A stretch of 64,000 nt of DNA, from the NCBI GenBank assembly GCA_020633675.1, contig JACKDE010000002.1, positions 624,644 to 688,643 of the forward strand, read 5' to 3'. The translations under genes were made by a program, and so were the position numbers. Origin of the DNA: Deferribacteres bacterium (GTDB lineage: Bacteria > Zhuqueibacterota > Zhuqueibacteria > Zhuqueibacterales > Geothermadaptataceae). Below are positions 2,504 through 34,301 of the stretch, in pieces. Position 1 is the stretch's first letter; each line of letters begins with the position of its first letter. Under the pieces are notes generated by a model. It made no database searches, had not been told where the DNA came from, and worked only from the letters and a program-made list of their open reading frames with translations.

Positions 2504-3889
2504 CTACCTCGCTGCCTCCAAAAGAGCATCACATTTCATTCGCATCTCATTCAGCAGATCCTGAGAATCAGAGTTGGTGGCCAGGTTATATTGTTCGTGG
2601 GGGTCTGTTTGTAAATCATACAACTCTTCAAACATAGGCGTCGATTCAATATAGCGGAGATATTTGTAGCGTTGCGTCACCACGCCTTCTGATTTTGGAA
2701 TGGTTGGATACTCGAACAGGTGTTCATAGAAAAATTCATCCCGCCACGCAGGCGACTTCGCATCGATAAGTGATCGAAGGCTTCTGCCCTGCATTGTTGC
2801 TGGAATATCCGCGCCGGCAAGATCAAGCAAGGTTGGCGCAATATCGATATTCAGCGCCATCTCATCCCGCTTCTGCCCCCTTTTTGACTGCGGCAGACGG
2901 GGATCGTAGACGACCAATGGTACACGAATGGATTCTTCGTGACCGTACCATTTTCCAGCCATGCCGTGTTCACCGAGGTAAAAACCATTGTCACCCATCA
3001 AAATAATGACGGTGTTGTTGGCCTGACCTGATTTTTCCAATTCCTTGCGAATTTGGCCAATCACGACATCCACACCATAGATCAGGCGGTAGTACCCCTT
3101 CACGGATTCCTGGAATTTTTCTGGAGTGGAGAATCGAATATCCCATCGCCTGCGGGCTTCATTGTTGCTGGTAAAAAAATCAGGAAAAGCATCATAGAAA
3201 TAGCTGTCGTCAGCCGTATTGGGTATAGGAATCTCTACGTCATTGTACAGGTCTTTGTAGGCTGGATCGTAGATAAATTGCCTGGGATCGTTGTCCTGTA
3301 CATGTGGTGCCTTAAAGCTGATCGACAAGCAAAAAGGCTGGCCGGCCGTGGAGCTTTGCAAAAATTCGAGGGCGTTTTCACCGCACATTTGGGTGTAATG
3401 CTTATAGTTGCCGTTCTCATCTTTGTGCTCATAAGTGGGTTGGCCGGTCATTGCCTGCCAGTAATCATATTGATCAACTGGTGGATTGCCAACGCCGTAC
3501 TTGCCGATAAAGCCGATACGGTAGCCTGCTTTTTTGAGCAGCAGAGGATAGGTGTTGACATTCGCTGCATCAGGTAGTTCCCCAAATCCTGCCATACCAT
3601 GACGGCGGACATATTGGCCAGTCAGGATACTCGCACGGCTCGGTGCGCAAATCGCGGTGGTCACGAAGGCATTTTGAAAGAGAACACCTTCGTTTGCCAG
3701 CGCATCCATATTCGGCGTTTGAATGATCTGATTTCCCATGCTGCCCATCGCATCCCAGCGCTGATCATCTGTCAGCAAAAAGATGATGTTGGGTTGCTTT
3801 TGTGCTTGCTGACATCCTGCAGAATACAGGCAGGCGATTGCCGCGAAGAACCCCCAAATAAGCTTTTTCATCGTTTCACTTCGATTCAA
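2504..3889 (-). CDS. Sulfatase (arylsulfatase family), secreted lipoprotein
   Basis: Signal peptide with lipobox (YSAGC). Canonical formylglycine motif CAPSRASILTG. LLTDDQRWD metal-binding N-terminus. 461 aa. Confidence 0.9.
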   Translation of the reverse strand: MNRSETMKKLIWGFFAAIACLYSAGCQQAQKQPNIIFLLTDDQRWDAMGSMGNQIIQTPNMDALANEGVLFQNAFVTTAICAPSRASILTGQYVRRHGMAGFGELPDAANVNTYPLLLKKAGYRIGFIGKYGVGNPPVDQYDYWQAMTGQPTYEHKDENGNYKHYTQMCGENALEFLQSSTAGQPFCLSISFKAPHVQDNDPRQFIYDPAYKDLYNDVEIPIPNTADDSYFYDAFPDFFTSNNEARRRWDIRFSTPEKFQESVKGYYRLIYGVDVVIGQIRKELEKSGQANNTVIILMGDNGFYLGEHGMAGKWYGHEESIRVPLVVYDPRLPQSKRGQKRDEMALNIDIAPTLLDLAGADIPATMQGRSLRSLIDAKSPAWRDEFFYEHLFEYPTIPKSEGVVTQRYKYLRYIESTPMFEELYDLQTDPHEQYNLATNSDSQDLLNEMRMKCDALLEAAR

Positions 3890-3910
3890 AGTTTCTCCTC
3901 ATTGCGTTTT

Positions 3911-4705
3911 TTACTCTAACAATTCAAGAGTGACCAGATAGGCACAGTGATCTGAAGCTATGGCATTTTGAATGACCTGAGTTTCAACGACTTTCCATTT
4001 ATCCATTGGATAGAACATCACATAGTCAATTTTAACCTGAGGATTGTCAGATGGAAATGTTGGTTCGGGATCGGCTTTATCATAGGATGCTGCCCAGACT
4101 TCTTCAAGAATGCCAATGGGTGTGCTCTGTGGTTTTGCGTTTAAATCTCCCGCCAGGATAGTCGGATATTTATTCTTAGAGAAGACTTCATTAATCTTCT
4201 TCACCTGAGCGACTCTGTCTTTTTCATCTGGCAAGTGATCCAGGTGCGTTCCAATAAATGCAATCGTGTCTCCCGATGAAAGCACAGTCGTGATTTCGAT
4301 GGCCGCTCTGGGTTCATTCTCTGGCGAATGGGGGAGAGCAACATTTCTGAAGCTTAGAAATGTGTATTTTGAAAGTATCCCTTCACCGTATTCTCCACCG
4401 TCATAATACATCGCTCTGCCAAAGATTGAAGCCATTTTTGCACGCCAGCCAAGTTCGGTTGCCAGGTCATATTTCTTGGCTCGATTGGTTTTATAATCCA
4501 CTTCCTGCAAGGCAACAAAATCCGGCTCGGCATCGATAATGACATCTGCGATCGCGTCCAGATCAAAATCACCTTTTGTCGTTTCGCCATGAAGAATGTT
4601 AAACGATAGGACTTTTATCAATTTGCTATCATGACCAACTTCTTGTGACCAAAGCGAATTGTTGCCGATCAGGAGCATCAAGAGTATTGGTAGAGTCGGT
4701 TTCAT
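3911..4705 (-). CDS. Endonuclease/exonuclease/phosphatase (EEP) family protein, secreted
   Basis: Signal peptide. LSFNILHGETT...DFVALQEVD signature of the EEP fold. Immediately upstream of, and co-oriented with, the sulfatase gene. Confidence 0.8.
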   Translation of the reverse strand: MKPTLPILLMLLIGNNSLWSQEVGHDSKLIKVLSFNILHGETTKGDFDLDAIADVIIDAEPDFVALQEVDYKTNRAKKYDLATELGWRAKMASIFGRAMYYDGGEYGEGILSKYTFLSFRNVALPHSPENEPRAAIEITTVLSSGDTIAFIGTHLDHLPDEKDRVAQVKKINEVFSKNKYPTILAGDLNAKPQSTPIGILEEVWAASYDKADPEPTFPSDNPQVKIDYVMFYPMDKWKVVETQVIQNAIASDHCAYLVTLELLE

Positions 4706-4941
4706 GCATCTATCCTAAAATAATCAACTGGTTTTGTCTTCGGTACCAAGGGATAACATATGATTTGACCGTCTAAAATTGAATCTGCAGGCTGAGTAAA
4801 TTCTTTCGCGATTGGACTGTCAATACTTGCTGATCTCTTTGTATCTGCATATGCAAAAAAATGCCGCGCCATCACTATTTGCGGTAAGTATGAGATCGGT
4901 TTGGTTGCAAAATAGCTTTATTAAAAGGTGCGGGGTAGACT

Positions 4942-5062
4942 GCCCCTTTGAGAATAGTCATATTATAATCAGGGCGAAAATATTGCCAATCGTGGAAAGA
5001 ATGTCAAGCGAAAGAAGCTGAAGGCATTTGCGGCGTGACCTCCCCCCATAGGGCGTGCTCAT
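4942..5062. other. Copy B of the paralogous intergenic element; contains minus-strand 34-aa ORF 4958-5062 (MSTPYGGRSRRKCLQLLSLDILSTIGNIFALIII)
   Basis: See copy A. The small ORF starts 13 residues before the conserved hydrophobic motif, as in copy A, and ends directly after NIFALIII. It lies about 250 nt upstream (same strand) of the EEP gene start. Confidence 0.35.
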
Positions 5063-24011: not shown

Positions 24012-24368
24012 CTATGCTTTTTGAGCATGGAGTCCTTGCAGCGCATCTTGCAGGTTTTCGAAATGCATGATGTATTTGGACAGGCCGACCATGTTGAAGA
24101 TTTTCTGAAAGTGCGGCGACAAGCCACATGCGCGTATTTCCTGCTGGATTTCCTGCGCACGGGTCAGCATGCTGATGATGATCGACATGCCGGCCGAGTT
24201 GATATATTCGACCTGACTGAAATCGAGTACAATATGCTTGGTTTTGGGCGTGGCGCATTTATCATAGGCATTGATGAGCCGTTGCTCGGCTGTATGGGTC
24301 AGATCGCCGTTCATTTTAAGGGTAGCGATAGCGCCGTCGAGTTCGAGATGGACCTGAAAGTTTTCCAA
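24012..24368 (-). CDS. STAS-domain anti-sigma-factor antagonist (RsbV/SpoIIAA-like)
   Basis: 118 aa. LDFSQVEYINSAGMSII with the conserved phosphorylatable Ser context. Confidence 0.85.
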   Translation of the reverse strand: MENFQVHLELDGAIATLKMNGDLTHTAEQRLINAYDKCATPKTKHIVLDFSQVEYINSAGMSIIISMLTRAQEIQQEIRACGLSPHFQKIFNMVGLSKYIMHFENLQDALQGLHAQKA

Positions 24369-24419
24369 TTTGTGCTCCGAAGATATGAGAATGTCAAAAG
24401 GCTAATATTCTTAAATAAA

Positions 24420-24881
24420 TCAAACCACTTCCGCAGGCTGCAATTTCATGATCAGCCGCGTGACATGGCCGTGCCGTGAGGAAATACCGAATTCCACCTG
24501 GTCGACCAGGTTTTCGATCAAAAAAATACCCCAGCCGCGCGGCGCATCTTTTTTCGAAAGCTTGCGCTCCAGCACCGGTTTTGGCGGATGTTTTTGAATG
24601 CCCGCACCATGGTCATAGATTTCAATTTCGAGCGTGTTGTCTTTAAGGTAATACAAAATATCCACCGAAGTGGTCGGTGACATTTTGTTGCCATGCTGCA
24701 TGGCATTGATACATGCCTCAGCGGTTGCGGTGCACAAATCCTGGCTGCGATCCGGTGGGATGCCGGCAATTTCAGCCAGTTCTGCCGCCGCGTTCATGGC
24801 GATTTTTTCATAACCAAAGGTGGAAGGGATCATCAATCGGACGATTTTCTCTTCGCTTTTGGCGGATGCGGTTTTTTTCAT
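24420..24881 (-). CDS. RsbW/SpoIIAB-like serine-protein kinase (anti-sigma regulatory factor, HATPase_c)
   Basis: EACINAMQHGN N-box. DHGAGI G1 box. 153 aa. Confidence 0.8.
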   Translation of the reverse strand: MKKTASAKSEEKIVRLMIPSTFGYEKIAMNAAAELAEIAGIPPDRSQDLCTATAEACINAMQHGNKMSPTTSVDILYYLKDNTLEIEIYDHGAGIQKHPPKPVLERKLSKKDAPRGWGIFLIENLVDQVEFGISSRHGHVTRLIMKLQPAEVV

Positions 24882-24894
24882 AGGACTGCTGGCG

Positions 24895-26406
24895 TTAACT
24901 GAACTTTAAAATGACGAGAGTGATGTCATCTGAATGATTAACGCTGCCGGCAAATTGTTCGGCACTGGAAATCAGGCCTTTCAGCATATCCGGCAGATTG
25001 CCGTTGGCGTTGTGCTCGATCGCATCTTTAAACCGATCGAAGCCGAAGGGCTGATAGCCGGTGCCATTTTTTTCATCGGCCAATTCGACGATGCCGTCGG
25101 TGTAGCAAATCAGCGTATCACCAGACTGAATGTCGAACGTTTGTTCCTGAAAACGGACATCCGGGCGAATACCGAGCGGAAAGCGGTCAGCGTCGGATTG
25201 CGCAAGAAATTCTGCCTTGGCCTTGCGCAATAAAATCGGCATCGTTTGACCGGCGTTGGTGTAGGAAAGTTTGCGCGCCCTGCGGTCATAAATGCCAAGA
25301 AAAACAGCCACAAACATGGTGCGTTGAATGTCGCGCACCAGCCGCCGGTTGGCGAGCTGCAGGATTTCGTCGGTTGTTTGCCGCATGTCGGCCGCGAAAC
25401 GTAAGGCGCTCATGGCGCTGCTCATGCCAATGGCGCCGGAGATGCCTTTCCCGGACACATCGCCGATGACGATAGCAAAACGATTTTCGTCCAGCGGGAT
25501 GATGTCGTAAAAATCGCCACCCACTTCATTTGCCGGAATCGATTGCGCCTCGATCACGGCGCCGGGCAGTTGTGGTTGGCGTTGTGGCAGCATTTCCCGC
25601 TGCAACCGGCGGGCGATTTCGAGCTCCTGCCACACTCGGGTGTTTTGCTTCAAGCCGGAAAGCATTTTGTTAAAATGGTCTGCCAGGCCGCTGATCTCAT
25701 CCCTGGTTGCATTCACCGGGATGGTTGCATCCAGATTGCCGGCAGCCACTTCTTTGGTAACGGAAATCAATTGCCGCATCGGCCGGAACATGCGGATCAC
25801 CGCAATATTGATCAACACTAATGATACAAAACCGACAATGCCGATCACTTCGATGACCCGTTGCCGAACGGATTCGGTGCTGCCGTATATATCGCTTTCA
25901 TAGCCGGAAGCCATCAATACCCATTTCCACGGCGCGAAATAGATATAGTAGCCGATTTTGCGCTCACCCTGGCGGCCTTTGGCATCAGTGCCCTGTGTAT
26001 AGGTGAGTAGATGTCCGTGGCGACTGACGCCTTTCTTGACTTCGATATCGATTTCGCCAAGTATCTGCTGGATGTGATGAAAATCTTCGATGTATTTGCC
26101 GACATCGGTGGGATGAATCACCAGTCGCGCTCGGCCCGGTTCTTCGGTGGAAAAAACGAAAATATAACCTTCCTTGCCGATCCGCACATCGTGGATGGCG
26201 CGGGCAAGCTCGTCGGTTGGCTCGCCGTTCAGCGCATGGAATTTTTCGCACAACGTATAGGCATAGTCGGTTTGCGCGTGCAGAAGTTCCCGTGCCAACT
26301 GCTCAAGCTCCTGCTTGGACTGCCGGAAGGATAGCACGCCAACCAGCACGGCAGTTGCGATAATATCGAAAATAATGACCAGGCTAAGCTTCGTTCGCAA
26401 AGTCAT
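24895..26406 (-). CDS. Membrane-bound PP2C-type serine phosphatase (RsbU/SpoIIE-like) with periplasmic Cache-like sensor and HAMP
   Basis: TM, then about 150-aa extracytoplasmic domain, then TM, HAMP (EISGLADHFNKML) and PP2C/SpoIIE (GDVSGKG, TDGIVE). Overlaps the upstream EBP gene by 23 nt. Confidence 0.85.
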   Translation of the reverse strand: MTLRTKLSLVIIFDIIATAVLVGVLSFRQSKQELEQLARELLHAQTDYAYTLCEKFHALNGEPTDELARAIHDVRIGKEGYIFVFSTEEPGRARLVIHPTDVGKYIEDFHHIQQILGEIDIEVKKGVSRHGHLLTYTQGTDAKGRQGERKIGYYIYFAPWKWVLMASGYESDIYGSTESVRQRVIEVIGIVGFVSLVLINIAVIRMFRPMRQLISVTKEVAAGNLDATIPVNATRDEISGLADHFNKMLSGLKQNTRVWQELEIARRLQREMLPQRQPQLPGAVIEAQSIPANEVGGDFYDIIPLDENRFAIVIGDVSGKGISGAIGMSSAMSALRFAADMRQTTDEILQLANRRLVRDIQRTMFVAVFLGIYDRRARKLSYTNAGQTMPILLRKAKAEFLAQSDADRFPLGIRPDVRFQEQTFDIQSGDTLICYTDGIVELADEKNGTGYQPFGFDRFKDAIEHNANGNLPDMLKGLISSAEQFAGSVNHSDDITLVILKFS

Positions 26407-27937
26407 CTGCGTGATCCCGATAGGTAATATTCAATCGTTCCATTTTTCGCTGCAAGCCAAGCCTGCTAAGACCAAGGCGGCGCGCCACCTCGCTTTTGTT
26501 GCCGCCCGCGTCTTCTAACGCCTTTTTGATCATTCGCGTTTCCAGTCGATCCACGGCTTCCCGCAGGTCTGCCGGTTCATCATCGGTTTCTGCCTCGGTT
26601 GTGTTGCTTGCGAAGAAGTGGCTGGAAAGGTGCTCAGGCCGGATCACATCGCCATCCTCGGCCAGGGTCACCAACCTTTCAACCTCATTTTCGAGTTCGC
26701 GAATGTTCCCGGGCCAACTGTATTTTTCAAAAACGTGCAGCGTTTCCGGCGCGAAACTGATATCCCGCCTGCTGATTTTCTGCTGGATTTTTTCGATAAA
26801 ATGATGCGAGAGAATCGCAATGTCTTCACGCCGTTGTCGCAATGCCGGCAATCGCAACTCCAGAACGCTCAGGCGATAGTATAAATCCTCCCTGAACCGT
26901 CCGGCTTTGATTTCGGCTTTCAAATCTTTGTTGGTGGCGGCCACTACCCGCACGTTGACACGGATTTCGCGCGTGCTGCCAACCCGCCGCAGGGTTTGCT
27001 CCTGCAAGGTGCGCAATAGCTTTGCCTGCGAGTTCAATGGCATATCACCGACTTCATCGATGAAAAGCGTGCCTGTGTCGGCTTGCTCGAAATAGCCGAT
27101 GTGCTGACTGACGCCAGTGGCGGTACCTGCTTCGATGCCAAAAAACTCCGATTCGACCAGGTTCTCAGGAATCGCTGTGCAATTGATCGCGACAAACGGA
27201 TTGTTGGCGCGCAGGCTGGCGTAGTGGATGGCGCGAGCAGCCAACTCTTTTCCCGTACCGGTCTCACCTACGATCAGCACGCTGGCATCGCTGCGGCCAA
27301 AGCTTTGAATGTTGCCGAGAATGGTCTGTAGTGCCCGGCTCGATCCGATGATTTTTTTGCTGGCATCTTCCTGCCGGACTTGTTGGCGCAGGGTCAGATT
27401 TTCGGCTGTCAGCTTTTCTTTTGCCGTGCTCAGTTCATCGTAGAGATTGATGTTTTCAAGCGCGCTGCCGGCATAGCTGGCGACGGCGTGCAACAGGCGC
27501 TCGTCATCGCGGCTGTAAGGCTCGATGAGGATCTTTTTGCCAAAAAAGAAGCCGCCGACGATTTGGTCGCGCACAATCACATGCTCCCACAGAGAGAAGG
27601 ACAGATCGTCCTGAGAGCGCTTTTCGGTGAGTTCGGTGAGAATTTCCTGTTGACGCCGGGCGGTAGCCTGACTGAATTCATTTCCAAGGTGCTGTTCAAG
27701 TTCTGCGCCCTGGCTTTCGGACAAGCCGCGCATTGCCGTGCAACGCCAGGAACCATTTTCATGCGCCAGCGCCAGTGCATTGCGCGCACCAAAAGTCCCT
27801 GCGATGGTTGCCAGAATTTGCGCATAGACTTCCTGCTGCTTGCGGGATCGGCTGATTGCCTGTGCGATTTCGAGCAGCGTTTTGAGTTGAAAAACCTGAC
27901 GTTCCAACTCCCAAATTGTTTTATCCTGTTCGCTCAT
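26384..27937 (-). CDS. Sigma-54-dependent transcriptional activator with N-terminal GAF domain (no receiver)
   Basis: GAF-like N-terminus. Walker A GETGTGKE. GIEAGTATG as a degenerate GAFTGA. C-terminal HTH (EVARRLGLSRLGLQRKM). Confidence 0.85.
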   Translation of the reverse strand: MSEQDKTIWELERQVFQLKTLLEIAQAISRSRKQQEVYAQILATIAGTFGARNALALAHENGSWRCTAMRGLSESQGAELEQHLGNEFSQATARRQQEILTELTEKRSQDDLSFSLWEHVIVRDQIVGGFFFGKKILIEPYSRDDERLLHAVASYAGSALENINLYDELSTAKEKLTAENLTLRQQVRQEDASKKIIGSSRALQTILGNIQSFGRSDASVLIVGETGTGKELAARAIHYASLRANNPFVAINCTAIPENLVESEFFGIEAGTATGVSQHIGYFEQADTGTLFIDEVGDMPLNSQAKLLRTLQEQTLRRVGSTREIRVNVRVVAATNKDLKAEIKAGRFREDLYYRLSVLELRLPALRQRREDIAILSHHFIEKIQQKISRRDISFAPETLHVFEKYSWPGNIRELENEVERLVTLAEDGDVIRPEHLSSHFFASNTTEAETDDEPADLREAVDRLETRMIKKALEDAGGNKSEVARRLGLSRLGLQRKMERLNITYRDHADDFANEA

Positions 27938-27975
27938 TGTTGCTAATGTGTTTTAGAAAATCGTAAAGAGCAAGC

Positions 27976-28002
27976 AAAAAAAAACCCCGAAATTGTTCGG
28001 GG
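27976..28002 (-). terminator. Rho-independent terminator after the wHTH gene, about 40 nt upstream of the EBP start
   Basis: ccccgaa-attg-ttcgggg stem preceded on the plus strand by a9, which is a T9 run on the minus strand. Confidence 0.6.
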
Positions 28003-28040
28003 TTTCGCTATCAAAAGATTTCGGTACGGATGCATATCCG

Positions 28041-28241
28041 CTATTTCAGGGAAGCTTTTACCGTGTTGCCTGATTTGGCCAGAGAGACTTTGTCCTCCCG
28101 CGCCAGCCAGCCAAGTGCTGCATTCAGGGTGAATGCATCGGTTTTCAGCTTGGTTTTCAATTTGGCAGCAGTCATTTCGCCATTCTCATTCAGCTCATGC
28201 CAAACTTTCCCTGCCATTTCGCCTATCGATTGATTTGTCAT
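28041..28241 (-). CDS. Small winged-helix (DUF2582-like) DNA-binding protein
   Basis: 66 aa from MTNQSIGEMAGKVWHELNENGEMTAAKLK. AGGAG RBS. Pattern typical of wHTH/DUF2582. The ORF-track N-terminal extension was discarded. Confidence 0.5.
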   Translation of the reverse strand: MTNQSIGEMAGKVWHELNENGEMTAAKLKTKLKTDAFTLNAALGWLAREDKVSLAKSGNTVKASLK

Positions 28242-28461
28242 TTTATCGCTCCTATTCCTAACAAACATCAAATATAAAAATAGTCCTATTAATAGGCTCA
28301 AAAAACGAAGGCGATTATACTAATCGACGAACTCAATGTCAAGTTTATTTTTTGTTGCGTTAGCTTCAAACTTCGATAACATTGTCGATTGTACCAAGTC
28401 AATGTTGCTTTTGCAAAAGTGAATCTTTACCTTTGCTGTTGGATTGAAAATCGGAGTCGTT

Positions 28462-29406
28462 ATGAATGCGGAATGCCCGGGGGTAGGAGAAAGCACTGCC
28501 TTTCAGGAAATTGTTCGACAGGCCACCATCTTTGCGCGGGTCAACCGACCATTGCTGATTCGTGGCGAACGAGGTACAGGCAAAGAGCTCGTTGCCCGCT
28601 TTATCCATTTGAAAAGCAGTCGAATCGAACAAAACTATGTAACGGTTAATTGTGCGGCATTTCAAGAAGAGCTATTTTTGTCCGATATGTTTGGACATGA
28701 AAAGGGTGCATTTACGGGTGCGGTGCAGAGTAAACCGGGAAAGTTGGAACTCGCGCATTGCGGCACCCTGTTTCTTGATGAAATCGCCAACATGACACGC
28801 ACCGCCCAGGAAAAGTTGCTGCGCGTGATCGAATATCAAAAATTCGAACGCATCGGTGGAACTGAATCGCTGCAAGTGGATGTCCGAATCATCGCGGCTA
28901 CAAATGCGCCGCTCGAAGAAATGATGCAAAATGGCGAATTCCTTCCTGATTTATATGACCGTTTGTGCTTTGCGGAGTTGACCTTGCCACCGCTCCGCAA
29001 GCGCCGCGAAGATATTCCAATGCTGATCGATCATATCGTCCAGCAATTGCATGCTGAAATTCCTGATTTGGAACGTAAGACCTTCACCCAATCTGCTGTC
29101 AAAGAGATGCAAGCGTACCACTGGCCCGGGAACATCCGCCAGCTTAAAAATGTGGTTGAGCGTCTCTATATCTTCGACGAAGACGGCGTCATTCATGCAT
29201 CGGAATTGCCGCTTGAAATTACGGCTGTTGAACCGCTGGGTAAAACCTTCCACGAACGTGTCACAGCATTTGAAAAGACACTGCTGACGAATGCACTCAA
29301 AGATTGTCAGGGCAACCAGCGTGCTGCCGCGCAAGTGCTTGGTATGTCCTACGACCAGTTCCGACATTACTTCAAAAAATATAAACTTGGGGAGTTGTTG
29401 GCGTAA
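28462..29406 (+). CDS. pspF: PspF-like sigma-54 activator (AAA+ and HTH only, no receiver)
   Basis: PLLIRGERGTGKE Walker A. Sigma-54 interaction domain. C-terminal HTH. About 315 aa, like PspF. ATG at 28462 with a GGAG RBS. Divergent from the wHTH gene and upstream of the pspA-like operon. Confidence 0.7.
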   Translation: MNAECPGVGESTAFQEIVRQATIFARVNRPLLIRGERGTGKELVARFIHLKSSRIEQNYVTVNCAAFQEELFLSDMFGHEKGAFTGAVQSKPGKLELAHCGTLFLDEIANMTRTAQEKLLRVIEYQKFERIGGTESLQVDVRIIAATNAPLEEMMQNGEFLPDLYDRLCFAELTLPPLRKRREDIPMLIDHIVQQLHAEIPDLERKTFTQSAVKEMQAYHWPGNIRQLKNVVERLYIFDEDGVIHASELPLEITAVEPLGKTFHERVTAFEKTLLTNALKDCQGNQRAAAQVLGMSYDQFRHYFKKYKLGELLA

Positions 29407-29474
29407 AACACCAACAGTTGGCGTTGTTTCCCACCTTTCTCCACCCTCCTGTCTCCTTTTTGAGCTCACCCGTA

Positions 29475-29492
29475 TTTGGTACGTCAGTTGCT
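29475..29492 (+). promoter_or_regulatory. Sigma-54 (-24/-12) promoter
   Basis: TTGGTACGTCAGTTGCTT has GG and GC exactly 10 nt apart (TGGTAC-N5-TTGCT versus consensus TGGCAC-N5-TTGCW). It lies about 85 nt upstream of the small membrane ORF and the pspA homolog. Confidence 0.6.
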
Positions 29493-29576
29493 TTAACAAG
29501 CGCGAACAACGAAAGTGAAACGAGACGTGAGCTTGCTGCAGATGCAAACAAGCCGCTGCTCACAGGAGGAGATCAA

Positions 29577-29774
29577 ATGACGGAACAAGCTTCAGAAGAT
29601 TCATCATCCACACCATTTTGGTATGTATTGGGCTTGATGATGTTTTTGGTGGCGCTTGTTTTTTTAGCTGCCTTTTTTGAAAAAACATTGGGCCTGTTTG
29701 AATTTTCAAGCGAAATCTGGAATATTCAGAAAATGCTATTCGGTGGAATTATGAGTTCGGTTTTGAACTTTTAA
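29577..29774 (+). CDS. Small single-TM membrane protein (LiaI/PspB-like position upstream of pspA)
   Basis: 65 aa. Strong RBS AGGAGG. Acidic N-terminus then TM WYVLGLMMFLVALVFLAAFF. First gene downstream of the sigma-54 promoter. Confidence 0.55.
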   Translation: MTEQASEDSSSTPFWYVLGLMMFLVALVFLAAFFEKTLGLFEFSSEIWNIQKMLFGGIMSSVLNF

Positions 29775-29835
29775 ACTTTGCAAAAATGTATAGAATAAGC
29801 GCCAACACATCACAATAAAATTCAGGAGTAAAAAA

Positions 29836-30537
29836 ATGAACCTGCTGAAAAGAATCTCAACCCTTGTTACAGCCAATATCAATAGTTTACTCGATATGGC
29901 TGAAGATCCGGAAGTGATGGTAAAGCAAATCATTCGGGATATGGAAGAGAGTATCATCGAATTGCGTCGTGAGACTGTGCGTGCTGTTGCACGTGAGAAA
30001 CAGCTCGAAAAACAAATCCTCAGCACAGAAGATCGCCTGAATGATTTCGACAAAAAAGCTGAAATTGCGCTCGGGAATGGTGACGAAGAGCTGGCAAAAA
30101 ACATGCTGGTGCAAAAGGTTGCCGCTGACAAGCGCAAGACTCTTTTGGAAAAAGAATTCGAAATGGCAAAGGCGACGTCGGCAGAGTTGAAGCAAGATTT
30201 GTCCAAACTCGAAGATCAAGTACAGGTTGCACGGCAGAAAAAGGAAGAGTTGATTCGACGCAAACGCGCTGCTGAGTCGAAGTTGCAGACGCAGAACATC
30301 CGTCGCAAATCGATTGAAGCCATGCAAACCATCGCGGCTTCAATAGCCAGCTTCGATGGCTCTGCAAAAAATCTCGAATCGTACGAGCAAGCCATTCAGC
30401 AGCTCGAAGCAGAAGCTGAAGCAACTCAGGAAATTCTGGATCTTGAGTCAAAAAATGATATCGATCTGGAAAAATTCGATAAAGAGAAAAAGGTCGAAGA
30501 TGAACTGGCAAAGCTGAAGCAGCGGTTGAAAAAATAG
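29836..30537 (+). CDS. pspA: Phage shock protein A (PspA/IM30/LiaH family)
   Basis: N-terminus ...NANINSLLDMAEDPEVMVKQIIRDMEESIIELR matches the PspA helix-1 signature. Coiled coil throughout. 233 aa. Confidence 0.9.
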   Translation: MNLLKRISTLVTANINSLLDMAEDPEVMVKQIIRDMEESIIELRRETVRAVAREKQLEKQILSTEDRLNDFDKKAEIALGNGDEELAKNMLVQKVAADKRKTLLEKEFEMAKATSAELKQDLSKLEDQVQVARQKKEELIRRKRAAESKLQTQNIRRKSIEAMQTIAASIASFDGSAKNLESYEQAIQQLEAEAEATQEILDLESKNDIDLEKFDKEKKVEDELAKLKQRLKK

Positions 30538-30701
30538 CCTTTGCTTCGTTGAGCTTTGGATTTATCAGCAAGCCGTCAATAGAAGTGCCTCTGTGCATCT
30601 TTCACTTGCAGTGAAGCCAGCGGGACTGAGGATAAATGTGCTCAGCAATGATGTATCTTTTTAAATTTTCGACACTCATTGCTGAACGAGGAGGGTTTTT
30701 C

Positions 30702-31274
30702 ATGGAAACAATATACCTGGTCTGTCTGATATTCGGAGGATTTTTCCTCGCTGTATCGATCTTTGCGGGTACCGAAGCGGATGCAGATTTCGGACTGGAG
30801 ACCGATGCTGATTTTAATACGGAATCAGCCGAACTTGGTGGAGAAGGCGTCACATCTGCGATCCAGTACCTGAGCTTTCGAAATATCGTCTTCTTTGTTG
30901 CCTTCTTTGGATTGACTGGATTCGCGCTTTCAAAACTGGAGACGCCGGCGATTGTGGCGTTTGCGATTGCCAGCGCACTTGGTTTCTTCGCCGCTTCGGT
31001 TGGCCATAAAGTGATGTCCTACCTGCGCGATTCGGAGGTCAGTGGCACAATGGATCTGCGTGATCTCGAAGGGCAGAGCGCTAAAGTGGTCGTGAATTTA
31101 ACGAAATCGAAACGGGGCAAAATATCGGTGAATTCCCGGGACCGGATTTTCCAGCTTCTTGCACTGGTCGCGGATGAAGCCAGCAAAGATGCATTCCAAT
31201 TTGGCGATTCGGTAACCATTATACGGGTTGAAAGCAATGTCGTTTATGTTGCCGAACCGGATTTCATTCAATAA
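30702..31274 (+). CDS. NfeD-like membrane protein with C-terminal OB-fold (YqiJ-like)
   Basis: Three TM helices, then a beta-rich OB domain (AKVVVNLTKSKRGKISV...VTIIRVESNVVYV). Positioned immediately upstream of flotillin, as for yqiJ-yqiK and nfeD-SPFH pairs. Confidence 0.7.
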   Translation: METIYLVCLIFGGFFLAVSIFAGTEADADFGLETDADFNTESAELGGEGVTSAIQYLSFRNIVFFVAFFGLTGFALSKLETPAIVAFAIASALGFFAASVGHKVMSYLRDSEVSGTMDLRDLEGQSAKVVVNLTKSKRGKISVNSRDRIFQLLALVADEASKDAFQFGDSVTIIRVESNVVYVAEPDFIQ

Positions 31275-31291
31275 ATATACCGAGGAGGTAG

Positions 31292-32707
31292 ATGATGCTA
31301 GAGAGTATTGTTGTAACTGTCGTGATGATTGTCGGCCTGGTGATTTTGACTGTGATGTTATTCATCAGCCGCTTTCTGCTGATCTGCCATCCAAATGAAG
31401 TGATTGTGCTTTCCGGGCGGCGCCGTCAGGTAGCCGACGGAGCGACTGTTGGATACCGCATTATTCGTGGCGGTCGGGCTCTGCGCATCCCGATTCTTGA
31501 AAAAGCCGCCCGCATGTCGCTTGAGACGATCCCGTTGGAACTGAGCGTGCAAAACGCATACTCGCGCGGAGGCATTCCCCTTAAAGTCGAGGCGATTGCC
31601 AACATTAAAATCGATTCAAGCGAACCTGCATTTGGGAACGCAGTCGAGCGGTTTCTCAATAAGCCACAGGGTGATATCCACGAAATCGCCAAGGATACCC
31701 TGGAAGGCAACTTGCGCGGCGTGCTGGCAACCTTGACACCAGAAGAAGTAAATGAAGACCGGCTGAAGTTTGCCGGCAGCCTGATCGATGAAGCCGATAG
31801 TGATTTGAAGCAATTGGGCTTGCAATTGGATACACTTAAAATACAAAATGTATCTGATGAAGCAGGCTACCTTGACTCGATCGGTCGCCGCAAAACTGCC
31901 GAAGTGATTTCAGCTGCACGCAAGGCTGAAGCTGAGAAAACTGCAGAAGCAGAAGAGGCGGAAGCCGCAGCCAAGCAACGCGCCGAAATTGCAAAAGCCC
32001 GCTCCGACCGTGAGATCCGTGCCGCACAAATCGAAGCCCAGCGTGATGTACAAACAACAGAAGCCGTCGCTCAGCAAAAAATAGAGGAAGAACGGAACAA
32101 CCTGCGTGTGAAAAAAGCTGAGCTTGAAAAAACCGCCGTCATTCGCGAGCAGGAAGCCAGCGTTGCCGGTGAGAAAGCCCGTGCTCAATACGAACAGGAG
32201 ATGGAACAGGAACGCATAATACTGCAACAGAAACGCCTGACAGCAGATGTGATTGAGCCTGCGCGTGCCAAGAAGGAAGCGATGGAACTGGAAGCCAAAG
32301 GTGCGGCTGCCAAGATTCTCGAAGACGGCCATGCCCGTTTGCAAGTGATGGCACAAACCATCAAAACCTATCAAAGCGCCAATGGCGAAGGTGAAAAAGT
32401 CTTCATGCTAAACATGCTGCCTGAAATTATCGCGCAACTGGTTGAAACCGTTTCCAAGGTCAATATCGAAAAGGTTAGCGTAATCGATTCCGGTTCCAGC
32501 AATGGCCATGGTCATGGAGTCAGTCGCTTTGTCAACCAACTGCCTGCTGCAGTGCTTTCACTAACGGAGCAAATCGAAAATGCAACCGGCATCAATATTC
32601 TGAGCCAGTTTCAAAAGCATGAACTGTCTGAACAACCGGAAAAAGCGACACCAAAAACAGGACGTTCCCGTAAAAACAACCAACACGATACTGCACAACC
32701 TGCGTAA
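31292..32707 (+). CDS. Flotillin-like SPFH/band-7 protein (YqiK/FloT-like)
   Basis: N-terminal TM. SPFH domain (VIVLSGRRR...GYRIIRGG). Long E/A/K-rich coiled-coil flotillin region. 471 aa. Confidence 0.85.
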   Translation: MMLESIVVTVVMIVGLVILTVMLFISRFLLICHPNEVIVLSGRRRQVADGATVGYRIIRGGRALRIPILEKAARMSLETIPLELSVQNAYSRGGIPLKVEAIANIKIDSSEPAFGNAVERFLNKPQGDIHEIAKDTLEGNLRGVLATLTPEEVNEDRLKFAGSLIDEADSDLKQLGLQLDTLKIQNVSDEAGYLDSIGRRKTAEVISAARKAEAEKTAEAEEAEAAAKQRAEIAKARSDREIRAAQIEAQRDVQTTEAVAQQKIEEERNNLRVKKAELEKTAVIREQEASVAGEKARAQYEQEMEQERIILQQKRLTADVIEPARAKKEAMELEAKGAAAKILEDGHARLQVMAQTIKTYQSANGEGEKVFMLNMLPEIIAQLVETVSKVNIEKVSVIDSGSSNGHGHGVSRFVNQLPAAVLSLTEQIENATGINILSQFQKHELSEQPEKATPKTGRSRKNNQHDTAQPA

Positions 32708-32716
32708 ATGTCCTCA

Positions 32717-32752
32717 GGGGCGGATGTCAAGCCAAATGATAGCCGCCCTTTT
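32717..32752 (+). terminator. Candidate rho-independent terminator after flotillin
   Basis: gggcgg ... ccgccc stem with a 19-nt loop, followed by ttttaattt. Confidence 0.4.
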
Positions 32753-32858
32753 AATTTCATCCATTCTCAAAGTGTCGGGAGAATAATCGAAATGAATAAT
32801 TATATGGCTGCGGTGTATGCTAAAGAAAGCCCGAGACTATGTTTAAAAGGAGATTCCC

Positions 32859-34301
32859 ATGCAATTCCGAAAGCTGAATTTATTGCTTGCCTGCCTTGTT
32901 GCCATGATTAGTTGGACGGCAAATACGCACGCCCAGCCTGTGACCTCAATGGAAGGCACCTGGCAGGGAAAACTCACTATTCCCGGCGGAATGAAACTGC
33001 GCATCGTGTTCCATATTTCACAGAACGATGAAGGCAACTACAGTGCGAAGATGGACAGCCCGGATCAGGGTGCAACCGGCTTGCCGGTTGGCGCGGTTAC
33101 TTTTGTTGAAAACAAGCTTACCATCGAGGTCCCGGCTGTGCGCGGAAATTTCGAAGGCACATGGACTGAAGAAAGTGGAAAAATTGATGGCAAATGGAAT
33201 CAAAGCGGAATGGCAATGCCGTTAATTTTAGAGCGGGTGGACAAAGTCGAAGCGCCTAAAAGACCACAAGCTCCCCAAAAGCCGTATCCCTATATCGAGG
33301 AAGAAGTGAACTACGAAAACGAAGCTGCAGGAATATCGCTGGCCGGTACGCTGACGATGCCGAAAACCGGCGCTCCATTTCCAGCTGTTGTGCTGATTAC
33401 CGGCTCTGGCCCACAGGATCGAAACGAAAGCTTGCTCGGGCACAAGCCATTTTTGGTGCTGGCCGATCATCTCACCCGCAACGGCATCGCTGTTTTGCGT
33501 TTTGATGACCGCGGTGTTGGCCAATCGACTGGTGATTTTGCCACCGCCACCAGTGAAGATTTTGCTGGTGATGTGAAAGCTGGCATTAAATATTTGCTCA
33601 GCCGTGATGAAATCGATGCAAAAAAAATCGGTTTGGTGGGTCATAGTGAAGGTGGTTTGATTGCACCGATGGTGGCCACTGAATCCCCGGATGTGGCATT
33701 TGTTGTACTGATGGCGGGACCGGGACTCAGCGGCGAAAAGATTTTGTTGCTGCAGAGCAATTTGATTGCCAAGGCAAATGGCGCGCCCGAGATCCTGATT
33801 GAACAGGGATTGATCGATGCAGCGGCCTACTATAAAATTCTGAAAGCCGAGCCGGATAATGCTGCTGCAGAGAAAAAGTTGCGCGCTTATCGGCAGGCAG
33901 CCTGGGACAAATCGAGCGAAGAAATGAAGGCTGAAGCGCGCAAACTGGGTGACCCGGAAAAGCTGTTTGAGGCTGGCTTGAAGCAAATGCTGACACCTTG
34001 GTTCCGCTATTTCATCAGCTATGATCCAGCGCCGACCCTGCAGAAGGTTAAAGTGCCGGTGCTGGCGATCAACGGCGAAAAAGATCTGCAAGTACCGCCA
34101 AAAGAAAATCTCGCAGCAATTGCAGAAGCCCTCACAGATGGCGGCAATGCCAATTTCAAAACGGTCGAAATGCCTGGCCTGAATCACCTTTTTCAAAAGT
34201 GCGAAACAGGTGCGCCGGGCGAATACAGCCAAATCGAAGAAACGATTTCGCCGACTGCTCTGCAAGCCATCAGCAACTGGATTTTGAGCGCGGCCAAGTG
34301 A
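32859..34301 (+). CDS. Secreted alpha/beta-hydrolase (S9/dienelactone-hydrolase-like) with N-terminal beta domain
   Basis: Signal peptide. Nucleophile elbow GHSEGG. C-terminal Asp/His region (NGEKDLQVP...LNHLF). Confidence 0.7.
   Translation: MQFRKLNLLLACLVAMISWTANTHAQPVTSMEGTWQGKLTIPGGMKLRIVFHISQNDEGNYSAKMDSPDQGATGLPVGAVTFVENKLTIEVPAVRGNFEGTWTEESGKIDGKWNQSGMAMPLILERVDKVEAPKRPQAPQKPYPYIEEEVNYENEAAGISLAGTLTMPKTGAPFPAVVLITGSGPQDRNESLLGHKPFLVLADHLTRNGIAVLRFDDRGVGQSTGDFATATSEDFAGDVKAGIKYLLSRDEIDAKKIGLVGHSEGGLIAPMVATESPDVAFVVLMAGPGLSGEKILLLQSNLIAKANGAPEILIEQGLIDAAAYYKILKAEPDNAAAEKKLRAYRQAAWDKSSEEMKAEARKLGDPEKLFEAGLKQMLTPWFRYFISYDPAPTLQKVKVPVLAINGEKDLQVPPKENLAAIAEALTDGGNANFKTVEMPGLNHLFQKCETGAPGEYSQIEETISPTALQAISNWILSAAK

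Follow-up and report, generated by a model that had tools for sequence, protein, structure and literature searches.

In Escherichia coli, the activator PspF, assisted by IHF, occupies a pair of upstream sites at pspA and a single one at pspG (PMC3709507). In Bacillus subtilis, the σW-dependent pspA-ydjGHI (samGHI) operon encodes an SPFH protein, YdjI, which together with its membrane partners is needed for PspA to reach the membrane (Scholz et al. 2021, PMC8581546). PspA has also been placed beside flotillin-type proteins: in the passages cited here, Popp et al. (2022, PMC9239133) reported a PspA-Band_7/Flot-NfeD neighbourhood with unnamed helix-turn-helix (HTH) regulators in Acidobacteriota, and Ravi et al. 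(2024, PMC11237479) found PspA more widely with a transmembrane (TM)-Band-7-flotillin and a YqiJ/YuaF protein of three TM helices. A full-text literature search returned no paper combining PspF, PspA, flotillin and σ54. The locus described here lies in a 64-kb stretch of contig JACKDE010000002.1 from a Deferribacteres bacterium (the window, 64,000 nucleotides (nt), in whose numbering all coordinates are given unless a related locus is named). Five closely packed genes on the + strand span 28462-32760, and they very likely represent a Psp-type membrane-stress operon under an E. coli-like PspF/σ54 switch, extended by an NfeD-like/flotillin pair.

Features in common with the pspF-pspABCDE systems of E. 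coli and Yersinia were an AAA+ activator, encoded beside pspA, that lacks a receiver and has both a GAFTGA loop and a Fis-type HTH; a σ54 −24/−12 promoter; a 6-5-6 dyad that precedes the promoter GG by about 72-74 nt; and a conserved recognition region in the HTH. The locus differed from these systems in that pspF was co-directional with and upstream of pspA, not divergent; PspB, PspC, PspD and PspE were absent, Trp56 of PspF was not conserved, and nfeD-like and flotillin genes were added. The second dyad stood nearer the promoter (about −76) than in E. coli, leaving little room for the IHF site used there (PMC3709507).

As in the B. subtilis pspA-ydjGHI operon, which is co-transcribed (PMC8581546), PspA was encoded with an SPFH protein and membrane proteins. 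However, control there is by σW, YdjI is soluble and lacks the flotillin C-terminal region and a membrane anchor, and YdjG (zinc-ribbon) and YdjH (TPM-domain) are, in the cited part of Ravi et al. (PMC11237479), not NfeD-like. The yuaF-floT (nfeD2-floT) pair of B. subtilis and the QmcA-YbbJ pair of E. coli have no link to pspA or σ54, and the NfeD-like protein of the window had diverged past Pfam NfeD detection. The Acidobacteriota loci compared below (L019-L021) shared the window’s architecture; Popp et al. reported their neighbourhood for the same phylum (PMC9239133). In the cited passages of Ravi et al., the version described is organised around a CesT/Tir-PspA dyad together with an AAA+ ATPase (PMC11237479), both absent in the window. 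In neither source, as far as the cited passages extend, was the regulator described as PspF/σ54 with defined dyads and promoter, or Calditrichota mentioned (PMC9239133, PMC11237479). A σ54 site before a PspA-containing operon was suggested for the bac operon PA3732-PA3729 of Pseudomonas aeruginosa, but that operon begins with a DUF2170/YjfI (CesT/Tir-like) protein, with no adjacent PspF-type activator reported in the cited part of the study (PMC10948618). The association of PspA with flotillin and NfeD and the regulatory logic are thus already known (PMC9239133, PMC11237479, PMC8581546); what is added here is an explicit PspF/σ54 cis-regulatory module conserved over two phyla, together with a narrow new family of small proteins.

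The σ54 −24/−12 element, TGGTACGTCAGTTGCT, occupied 29477-29492 (+), one mismatch from TGGCAC-N5-TTGCW, with its GG at 29478-29479 and its GC at 29490-29491. The pspF stop codon lay 72 nt ahead of this element and the ATG of the small gene 85 nt beyond it, and transcription is predicted to start near 29503. A preliminary description of this DNA had proposed the promoter at 29475-29492; the motif stood, and its span was corrected to one beginning two bases inside that range. Alone, the motif was weak evidence: at up to two mismatches the consensus occurred at 54 sites in the window versus 51 expected from shuffled sequences, that is, without enrichment. At up to one mismatch, four sites were present, and only TGGTACGTCAGTTGCT both kept the GG and GC and preceded a gene. 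The significance of the motif comes from its conservation in related loci, which were fetched via the small protein and the NfeD-like protein (numbered here with the prefix L) and of which 13 non-redundant loci entered the promoter comparison. GG-N10-GC, with up to three mismatches, stood before the first gene past pspF or just before pspA in all 13, and the intergenic sequence flanking the element had diverged among them. The only other one-mismatch match in the window keeping GG and GC, TGGCAATCAAATTGCT at 33756-33771 (−), is probably a chance match because it lay antisense inside an alpha/beta-hydrolase gene (32859-34301) and had no upstream dyad.

Two dyads, both candidate PspF sites, stood upstream of this promoter. 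With the GG taken as −25/−24, the distal dyad TTGGCGTAAAACACCAA at 29398-29414 (+), overlapping the pspF stop codon, was centred 72 nt upstream of the GG (about −97), and the proximal dyad TTGGCGTTGTTTCCCAC at 29418-29434 (+) was centred 52 nt upstream (about −76). TTGGCGTAAAACACCAA was the sole exact match to TTGGYG-N5-CRCCAA in the 64-kb window, and this exact motif was found once per locus in 13 loci (7 distinct) and in none of the other 22. The looser dyad yTGGYG-N5-CRCCAr, centred 49-52 and/or 71-73 nt upstream of the GG, was present in the window and in 12 of the 13 related loci, from Calditrichota and Acidobacteriota; four of the 12 had both dyads at up to two mismatches. A perfect distal copy occurred in the window, L001, L010 and L011, and a perfect proximal copy in L008, L013, L015 and L017. 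The window’s proximal dyad sat where L008, L013, L014, L016, L017, L020 and L021 have perfect or near-perfect proximal dyads.

Dyads and promoter kept their spacing in L013, L014, L016 and L021, although 0.3 to 1.7 kb of inserted DNA parts the promoter from pspF there, and also in the Acidobacteriota loci L020 and L021; the dyads are therefore promoter elements, not part of the pspF end. The exception was L019, the third Acidobacteriota locus, with a single dyad 80 nt from the GG. A role of the distal dyad as the pspF terminator was considered and rejected: its 6-bp stem is weak and contains a mismatch, a U-run is missing, and the dyad stays with the promoter in L013, L014, L016 and L021. A scan of 209 kb on both strands for composites of the promoter motif and a dyad at the right distance found 14. 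Of these, 13 marked the psp promoter, covering 13 of the 14 loci, and one was elsewhere; according to shuffles, 0.2 would be expected by chance in the whole set. No further regulon member was indicated within the window, which held no second exact dyad and no other dyad-plus-promoter composite. The E. coli pspA control region carried a dyad of the same 6-5-6 geometry, TTAGTGTAATTCGCTAA, centred 74 nt upstream of the GG, with 14 of 17 positions identical to the L010/L011 site TTGGTGTAATTCACCAA; judged from sequence, TTAGTGTAATTCGCTAA may be the footprinted PspF site.

The activator gene (28462-29406, +) encoded 314 amino acids (aa), in which an AAA+ domain bearing the GAFTGA loop is followed by a lid domain and then by a Fis-type HTH. 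Pfam assigned Sigma54_activat (PF00158, 1e-60) to residues 8-173, followed by AAA_lid_14 and HTH_8 (4.3e-07), and the GAFTGA, GERGTGKE and LFLDE motifs were present in the alignments. The AAA+ domain began at residue 8 of 314 and homologues were equally long, leaving no N-terminal receiver or sensory domain, as expected of a receiver-less σ54 enhancer-binding protein. The best NCBIfam model was TIGR02974 pspF (346.7 bits, under the equivalog cut-off of 443.55), NF008622 scored 288.8 bits with its cut-off of 529 not reached, and the best match in the PDB was E. coli PspF (4e-67), with NtrC1 narrowly behind. In the alignment, the HTH was close to that of E. coli PspF: NQRAAAQVLGMSYDQFRHYFKKY (pattern NQRAAAxxLGMSYDQFRHYFKKY) here versus NQKRAAELLGLTYHQFRALLKKH there. 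The reading of this protein as a receiver-less, PspF-like activator, made from the sequence at first sight, was therefore sustained, and all five genes lay at the positions first given for them.

The pspA gene (29836-30537, +) encoded a 233-aa ESCRT-III-type PspA/IM30 protein matching PF04012 over residues 2-231 (E = 6.7e-31; 108 bits versus a cut-off of 33.9) and TIGR02977 at 2.4e-35 (122.3 bits, under the equivalog cut-off of 242.95). It aligned almost over its full length with solved Vipp1/PspA structures (residues 1-212 in the best match and up to 1-229/230 in others), confirming the homology proposed in the preliminary description. That description’s label “Lia-like” did not hold: no LiaFSR was found, and the LiaH model scored 61.9 bits (cut-off 380), far under the PspA model, so nothing in this locus is Lia-like.

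The nfeD-like gene (30702-31274, +), of YuaF/YqiJ type, encoded 190 aa in the best reading of its start, behind GGAGG. Sequence comparison gave no match to PF01957 or an NCBIfam NfeD model at E ≤ 10 and none in the PDB, leaving a precomputed PF25842 NfeD_TM hit graded “faint”; fold comparison alone identified the protein. An AlphaFold model built with 13 homologues (mean predicted local distance difference test score 69, 75-85 in ordered parts) had TM helices at residues 2-21, 59-78 and 83-112, a disordered acidic loop and a five-stranded C-terminal β domain, an OB-fold like that of solved NfeD domains. A flotillin-like match followed the nfeD-like gene in 23 of 24 species-genome loci, within about 600 nt, and in L008, L009 and L011; the exceptions were L022, where the contig ends, and L010, which is without flotillin. 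The earlier assignment of a three-TM, OB-fold NfeD-like protein was thus borne out by modelled fold and flotillin context but failed the sequence-family test. An identical copy of the product in NCBI is annotated as a hypothetical protein of a “Deferribacteres bacterium” metagenome-assembled genome (MAG), and the closest named relatives of the locus were Calditrichaceae and Calditrichia MAGs; the bacterium is an uncultured one of Calditrichota type.

The fifth gene (31292-32707, +) encoded a 471-aa FloT-like protein in which a hydrophobic N-terminal anchor and an SPFH/Band_7 domain are joined by a long coiled-coil flotillin region rich in Glu and Ala. It matched Band_7 (2.7e-18) and NCBIfam FloT (1.3e-50; 172.8 bits, under the cut-off of 700). 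Because the Band_7 domain was accompanied by an alignment to human flotillin-1 over residues 30-437 (E = 3.5e-37), this is a true flotillin, as had been stated, and not a generic SPFH protein. A terminator-like hairpin formed by an inverted repeat, then UUUUAAUUU, followed at 32716-32759 (+), with a minimum free energy of −18.5 kcal/mol (z = −2.54 versus shuffles), and is the likely end of the operon.

Between the promoter and pspA stood a gene for a 65-aa membrane protein (29577-29774, +), with AGGAGG at 29564-29569, 7 nt before the ATG. The ratio of nonsynonymous to synonymous substitution rates (dN/dS) was 0.10-0.26 versus L001 and L011, at saturated synonymous sites; on this ground the gene is real, and the possibility that the small open reading frame (ORF) is a non-coding leader was ruled out. 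The AlphaFold model placed a TM helix at residues 14-38 and a second helix at 40-63. The product had no Pfam match at E ≤ 10 and no NCBIfam match at E ≤ 1, in agreement with the initial remark that it has no obvious similarity to LiaI or PspB. On the assumption that these libraries hold the corresponding models, PspB, PspC, PspD, PspG and LiaI models gave no match; Pfam models for PspB, PspC, PspD and PspG were used by Popp et al. in the cited passages (PMC9239133). The family was narrow, with two clusters in an indexed search and four representatives among 1.84 billion proteins in an exhaustive HMMER search, one of them the mis-called L011 gene; six sequences shared an acidic N-terminus, a PFW motif, the TM helix and a GLFD motif.

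The same slot was empty in L010, L019 and L020, with the promoter module kept, and in other loci it held other genes: an SdpI-like protein in L001 and L009, a Zn_ribbon_13 protein and a 30-aa TM peptide in L009, a PDDEXK_3 protein in L008, L013, L014, L016 and L017, and a DUF6141-like membrane protein in L013 and L017. For these reasons the 65-aa protein does not belong to the conserved core and is, from the comparison of loci, a lineage-restricted occupant of a variable slot. The gene, its single TM helix (as modelled) and its perfect ribosome-binding site were upheld as originally described. The PDDEXK_3 proteins (PD-(D/E)XK nuclease superfamily, 132-159 aa) were the first gene behind the σ54 promoter in five Calditrichota relatives (L008 6592-7071; L013 1566-1976; L014 2191-2661; L016 1670-2068; L017 3583-4002), which is odd for a membrane-stress operon. 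That the 65-aa protein acts as a PspA anchor or sensor is a guess. Speculatively, and with considerable doubt, it may be the first of a new family of membrane sensors or anchors that are coupled to PspA/PspF and play the part of PspB/C, LiaI or PspM, and the stretch separating the promoter from pspA may serve as an exchangeable “sensor slot”. If so, slot proteins could tune the input of the PspF switch in a clade whose PspF is without the Trp56 that contacts PspA in E. coli.

Gene order pspF…pspA-nfeD-floT was kept in Calditrichota (L008-L017) and Acidobacteriota (L019-L021), and in more distant phyla the nfeD-floT pair alone was found. A species-genome scan with PspA alone recovered no close relatives; one with the NfeD-like alignment recovered 24 loci. 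The pspA-nfeD spacer measured only −7 to 38 nt in L009, L010 and L019-L021, which supports one operon. On these grounds the genes are probably co-transcribed as a single operon, with possible attenuation after pspA. The earlier proposal of one PspF-dependent unit joining PspA to NfeD and flotillin accordingly found support in the conserved promoter and dyads, the synteny over two phyla and the short spacers.

In the mechanism that we infer, the activator, having no sensory domain, would bind the two dyads yTGGYG-N5-CRCCAr about 76 and 97 nt upstream of the start, and ATP hydrolysis and the GAFTGA loop would open the σ54 closed complex at TGGTAC-N5-TTGCT. One transcript from near 29503 would then encode the 65-aa protein, PspA, the NfeD-like protein and flotillin, and terminate at the hairpin that follows 32716. 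On the E. coli pattern, PspA would probably hold back the activator and release it once PspA is recruited to a damaged membrane. The flotillin/NfeD assembly would probably serve as a membrane platform for PspA, as suggested by the B. subtilis PspA-YdjGHI and E. coli QmcA-YbbJ proteins.

Several observations weigh against this PspF/σ54-controlled operon. No RpoN box was found among the window’s proteins, and the presence of σ54 was deduced only from the two σ54 activator genes found there. The window’s proximal dyad was degenerate (three mismatches). The related site in the E. coli pspG region, GTAGTCAAATTCACCAC, matched both the dyad and its spacing less closely: the distance to the GG is 61 nt, so that only the half-site is supported by it. 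The NCBIfam equivalog cut-offs for PspF, PspA and FloT were all missed. Trp56 of E. coli PspF was replaced by Ile in the window’s activator, and the aligned position across the clade held Ile, Arg, Glu, Val, Gln, Ala, Lys, Ser or Cys, which makes the PspA feedback the weakest step of the mechanism. Lastly, the window’s pspA-nfeD spacer was 164 nt long and contained a hairpin, L008 carried a GC-rich hairpin and T-run right after pspA, and nfeD-floT pairs free of pspA existed elsewhere, so that separate or partial expression of nfeD-floT is possible.

The alternative that survives best concerns the control step alone and is compatible with the operon: the activator would be PspF-like in architecture but take its input from something other than PspA, such as the small membrane proteins that vary from locus to locus just behind the promoter, the level at which the activator itself is expressed, or an unlinked factor. 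The W56A variant of E. coli PspF does not interact with PspA (PMC3709507), so the loss of Trp56 favours this alternative, as do the missed TIGR02974 cut-off and the different membrane proteins that occupy the slot after the promoter in different lineages. Against it, a receiver-less activator beside pspA is the hallmark of a PspA-controlled PspF, the N-terminal region of PspA aligned with E. coli PspA from residue 1, and the promoter module was unchanged in L010, L019 and L020, where the slot was empty. We regard such a non-PspA input as less likely than not.

Somewhat less plausible is a division into two transcription units, in which the σ54 promoter would serve only the small gene and pspA, and nfeD-floT would be expressed from its own promoter in the spacer, or most transcripts would end after pspA. 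The link of PspA to nfeD-floT would then be one of neighbourhood and not of a shared regulon. The spacer was long and variable in several Calditrichota loci (119 to 1504 nt among the loci lacking the short form, with repeat elements, an inserted gene or, in L008, the terminator-like hairpin), stand-alone nfeD-floT pairs occurred in Acidimicrobiia, Planktothrix, Myxococcota and Longimicrobiales, and L010 had pspF-pspA-nfeD without flotillin, all of which would fit two units. However, the window’s spacer (30538-30701) held no predicted σ70-like or σ54-like promoter and no predicted terminator, and none of either was predicted anywhere inside the window’s operon. The hairpin in this spacer (30642-30685, +) had perfect 10-bp arms and a 24-nt loop but no U-run directly after it, and a structured RNA was rejected because the whole-spacer fold was no stabler than shuffles (z = −0.35). 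Together with the short spacers of relatives and the gene order common to two phyla, these results make two units rather unlikely, and the single operon is preferred.

Least tenable, and very improbable, is a reading in which the σ54 motif arose by chance and the operon depends on read-through from pspF or on an unrecognised σ70-type promoter: at up to two mismatches the motif is no commoner than in shuffles, and no terminator was predicted between pspF and the small gene, but motif and dyad spacing were kept in 12 of 13 related loci against the 0.2 chance composites, the promoter travelled with the downstream genes where insertions part it from pspF (L013, L014, L016, L021), and promoter prediction found no σ70-like site on the + strand.

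Insertions and losses in the related loci were observed in their own right. In L010 (8001-9000), pspF-pspA-nfeD was followed by small unannotated ORFs and the genes for ribosomal proteins L33 and L28, which suggests loss of flotillin in that lineage. L014 carried a 360-aa ORF between pspF and the promoter (854-1936), its first half coiled-coil-looking by eye, and a 464-aa ORF without Pfam match between pspA and nfeD (3606-5000); the promoter-dyad unit stayed with pspA despite both. Short repeats, for example GTCATTCGCCTGCGGCG-type and CACTTTTCACTTTGCA-type units, filled the pspA-nfeD spacers of Calditrichaceae loci (L013 3293-3562; L015 2183-2561; L016 3074-3434) and also lay between pspF and the promoter (L013 about 1380-1450; L016 about 1460-1540); they look like REP/MITE-like (repetitive extragenic palindrome/miniature inverted-repeat transposable element) insertions. 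L001 had an insertion of about 88 bp relative to the window just upstream of pspF (about 112-205), flanked by the direct repeat AAATCGGAG and containing the 20-bp perfect palindrome TGTCAAACTTTAGTTTGACA. Directly past the flotillin gene, L008 (10372-16603) encoded DUF4178, an unknown gene, DUF350, a spermine-synthase-like protein, an ion channel, a DnaJ-domain protein, a CesT/YbjN-like protein and a second PspA; this cluster belongs to the polyamine/CesT-PspA class of Ravi et al., as given in the cited passages, and adjoins the PspF-controlled operon.

Upstream of pspF in the window, a perfect σ70 consensus (TTGACA-17 nt-TATAAT, 12/12) at 28314-28342 (−) pointed away from pspF towards a small DUF2582 winged-helix gene (28041-28301, −), followed by a strong intrinsic terminator (27981-28006, −) with an 11-bp stem and a T-run; from its sequence, the DUF2582 gene looks like a strongly expressed monocistronic unit. 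Beyond it, the stretch 24895-27937 (−) encoded the second σ54 activator, of 517 aa with about 190 N-terminal residues without a Pfam match, and, overlapping its gene by 23 nt, a Cache-HAMP-SpoIIE/PP2C phosphatase. Further upstream, at about 24012-24881 by offset from L002, the L002 annotation places a HATPase_c_2 kinase together with a STAS protein, making up a partner-switching module; L011 had the same neighbours. An Rfam scan of 27900-33000 gave a single match, a sub-threshold isrJ on a terminator.

The locus gives a sequence-level picture of a PspF/σ54 switch outside Proteobacteria, in which the promoter, a pair of dyad operators held at constant distances and a conserved HTH can all be recognised. 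With its defined DNA sites and small gene set, it lends itself to tests in heterologous hosts. In Calditrichota and Acidobacteriota, the switch precedes PspA together with the NfeD-like/flotillin pair, which adds support to the emerging picture of ESCRT-III-type PspA acting jointly with SPFH scaffolds.

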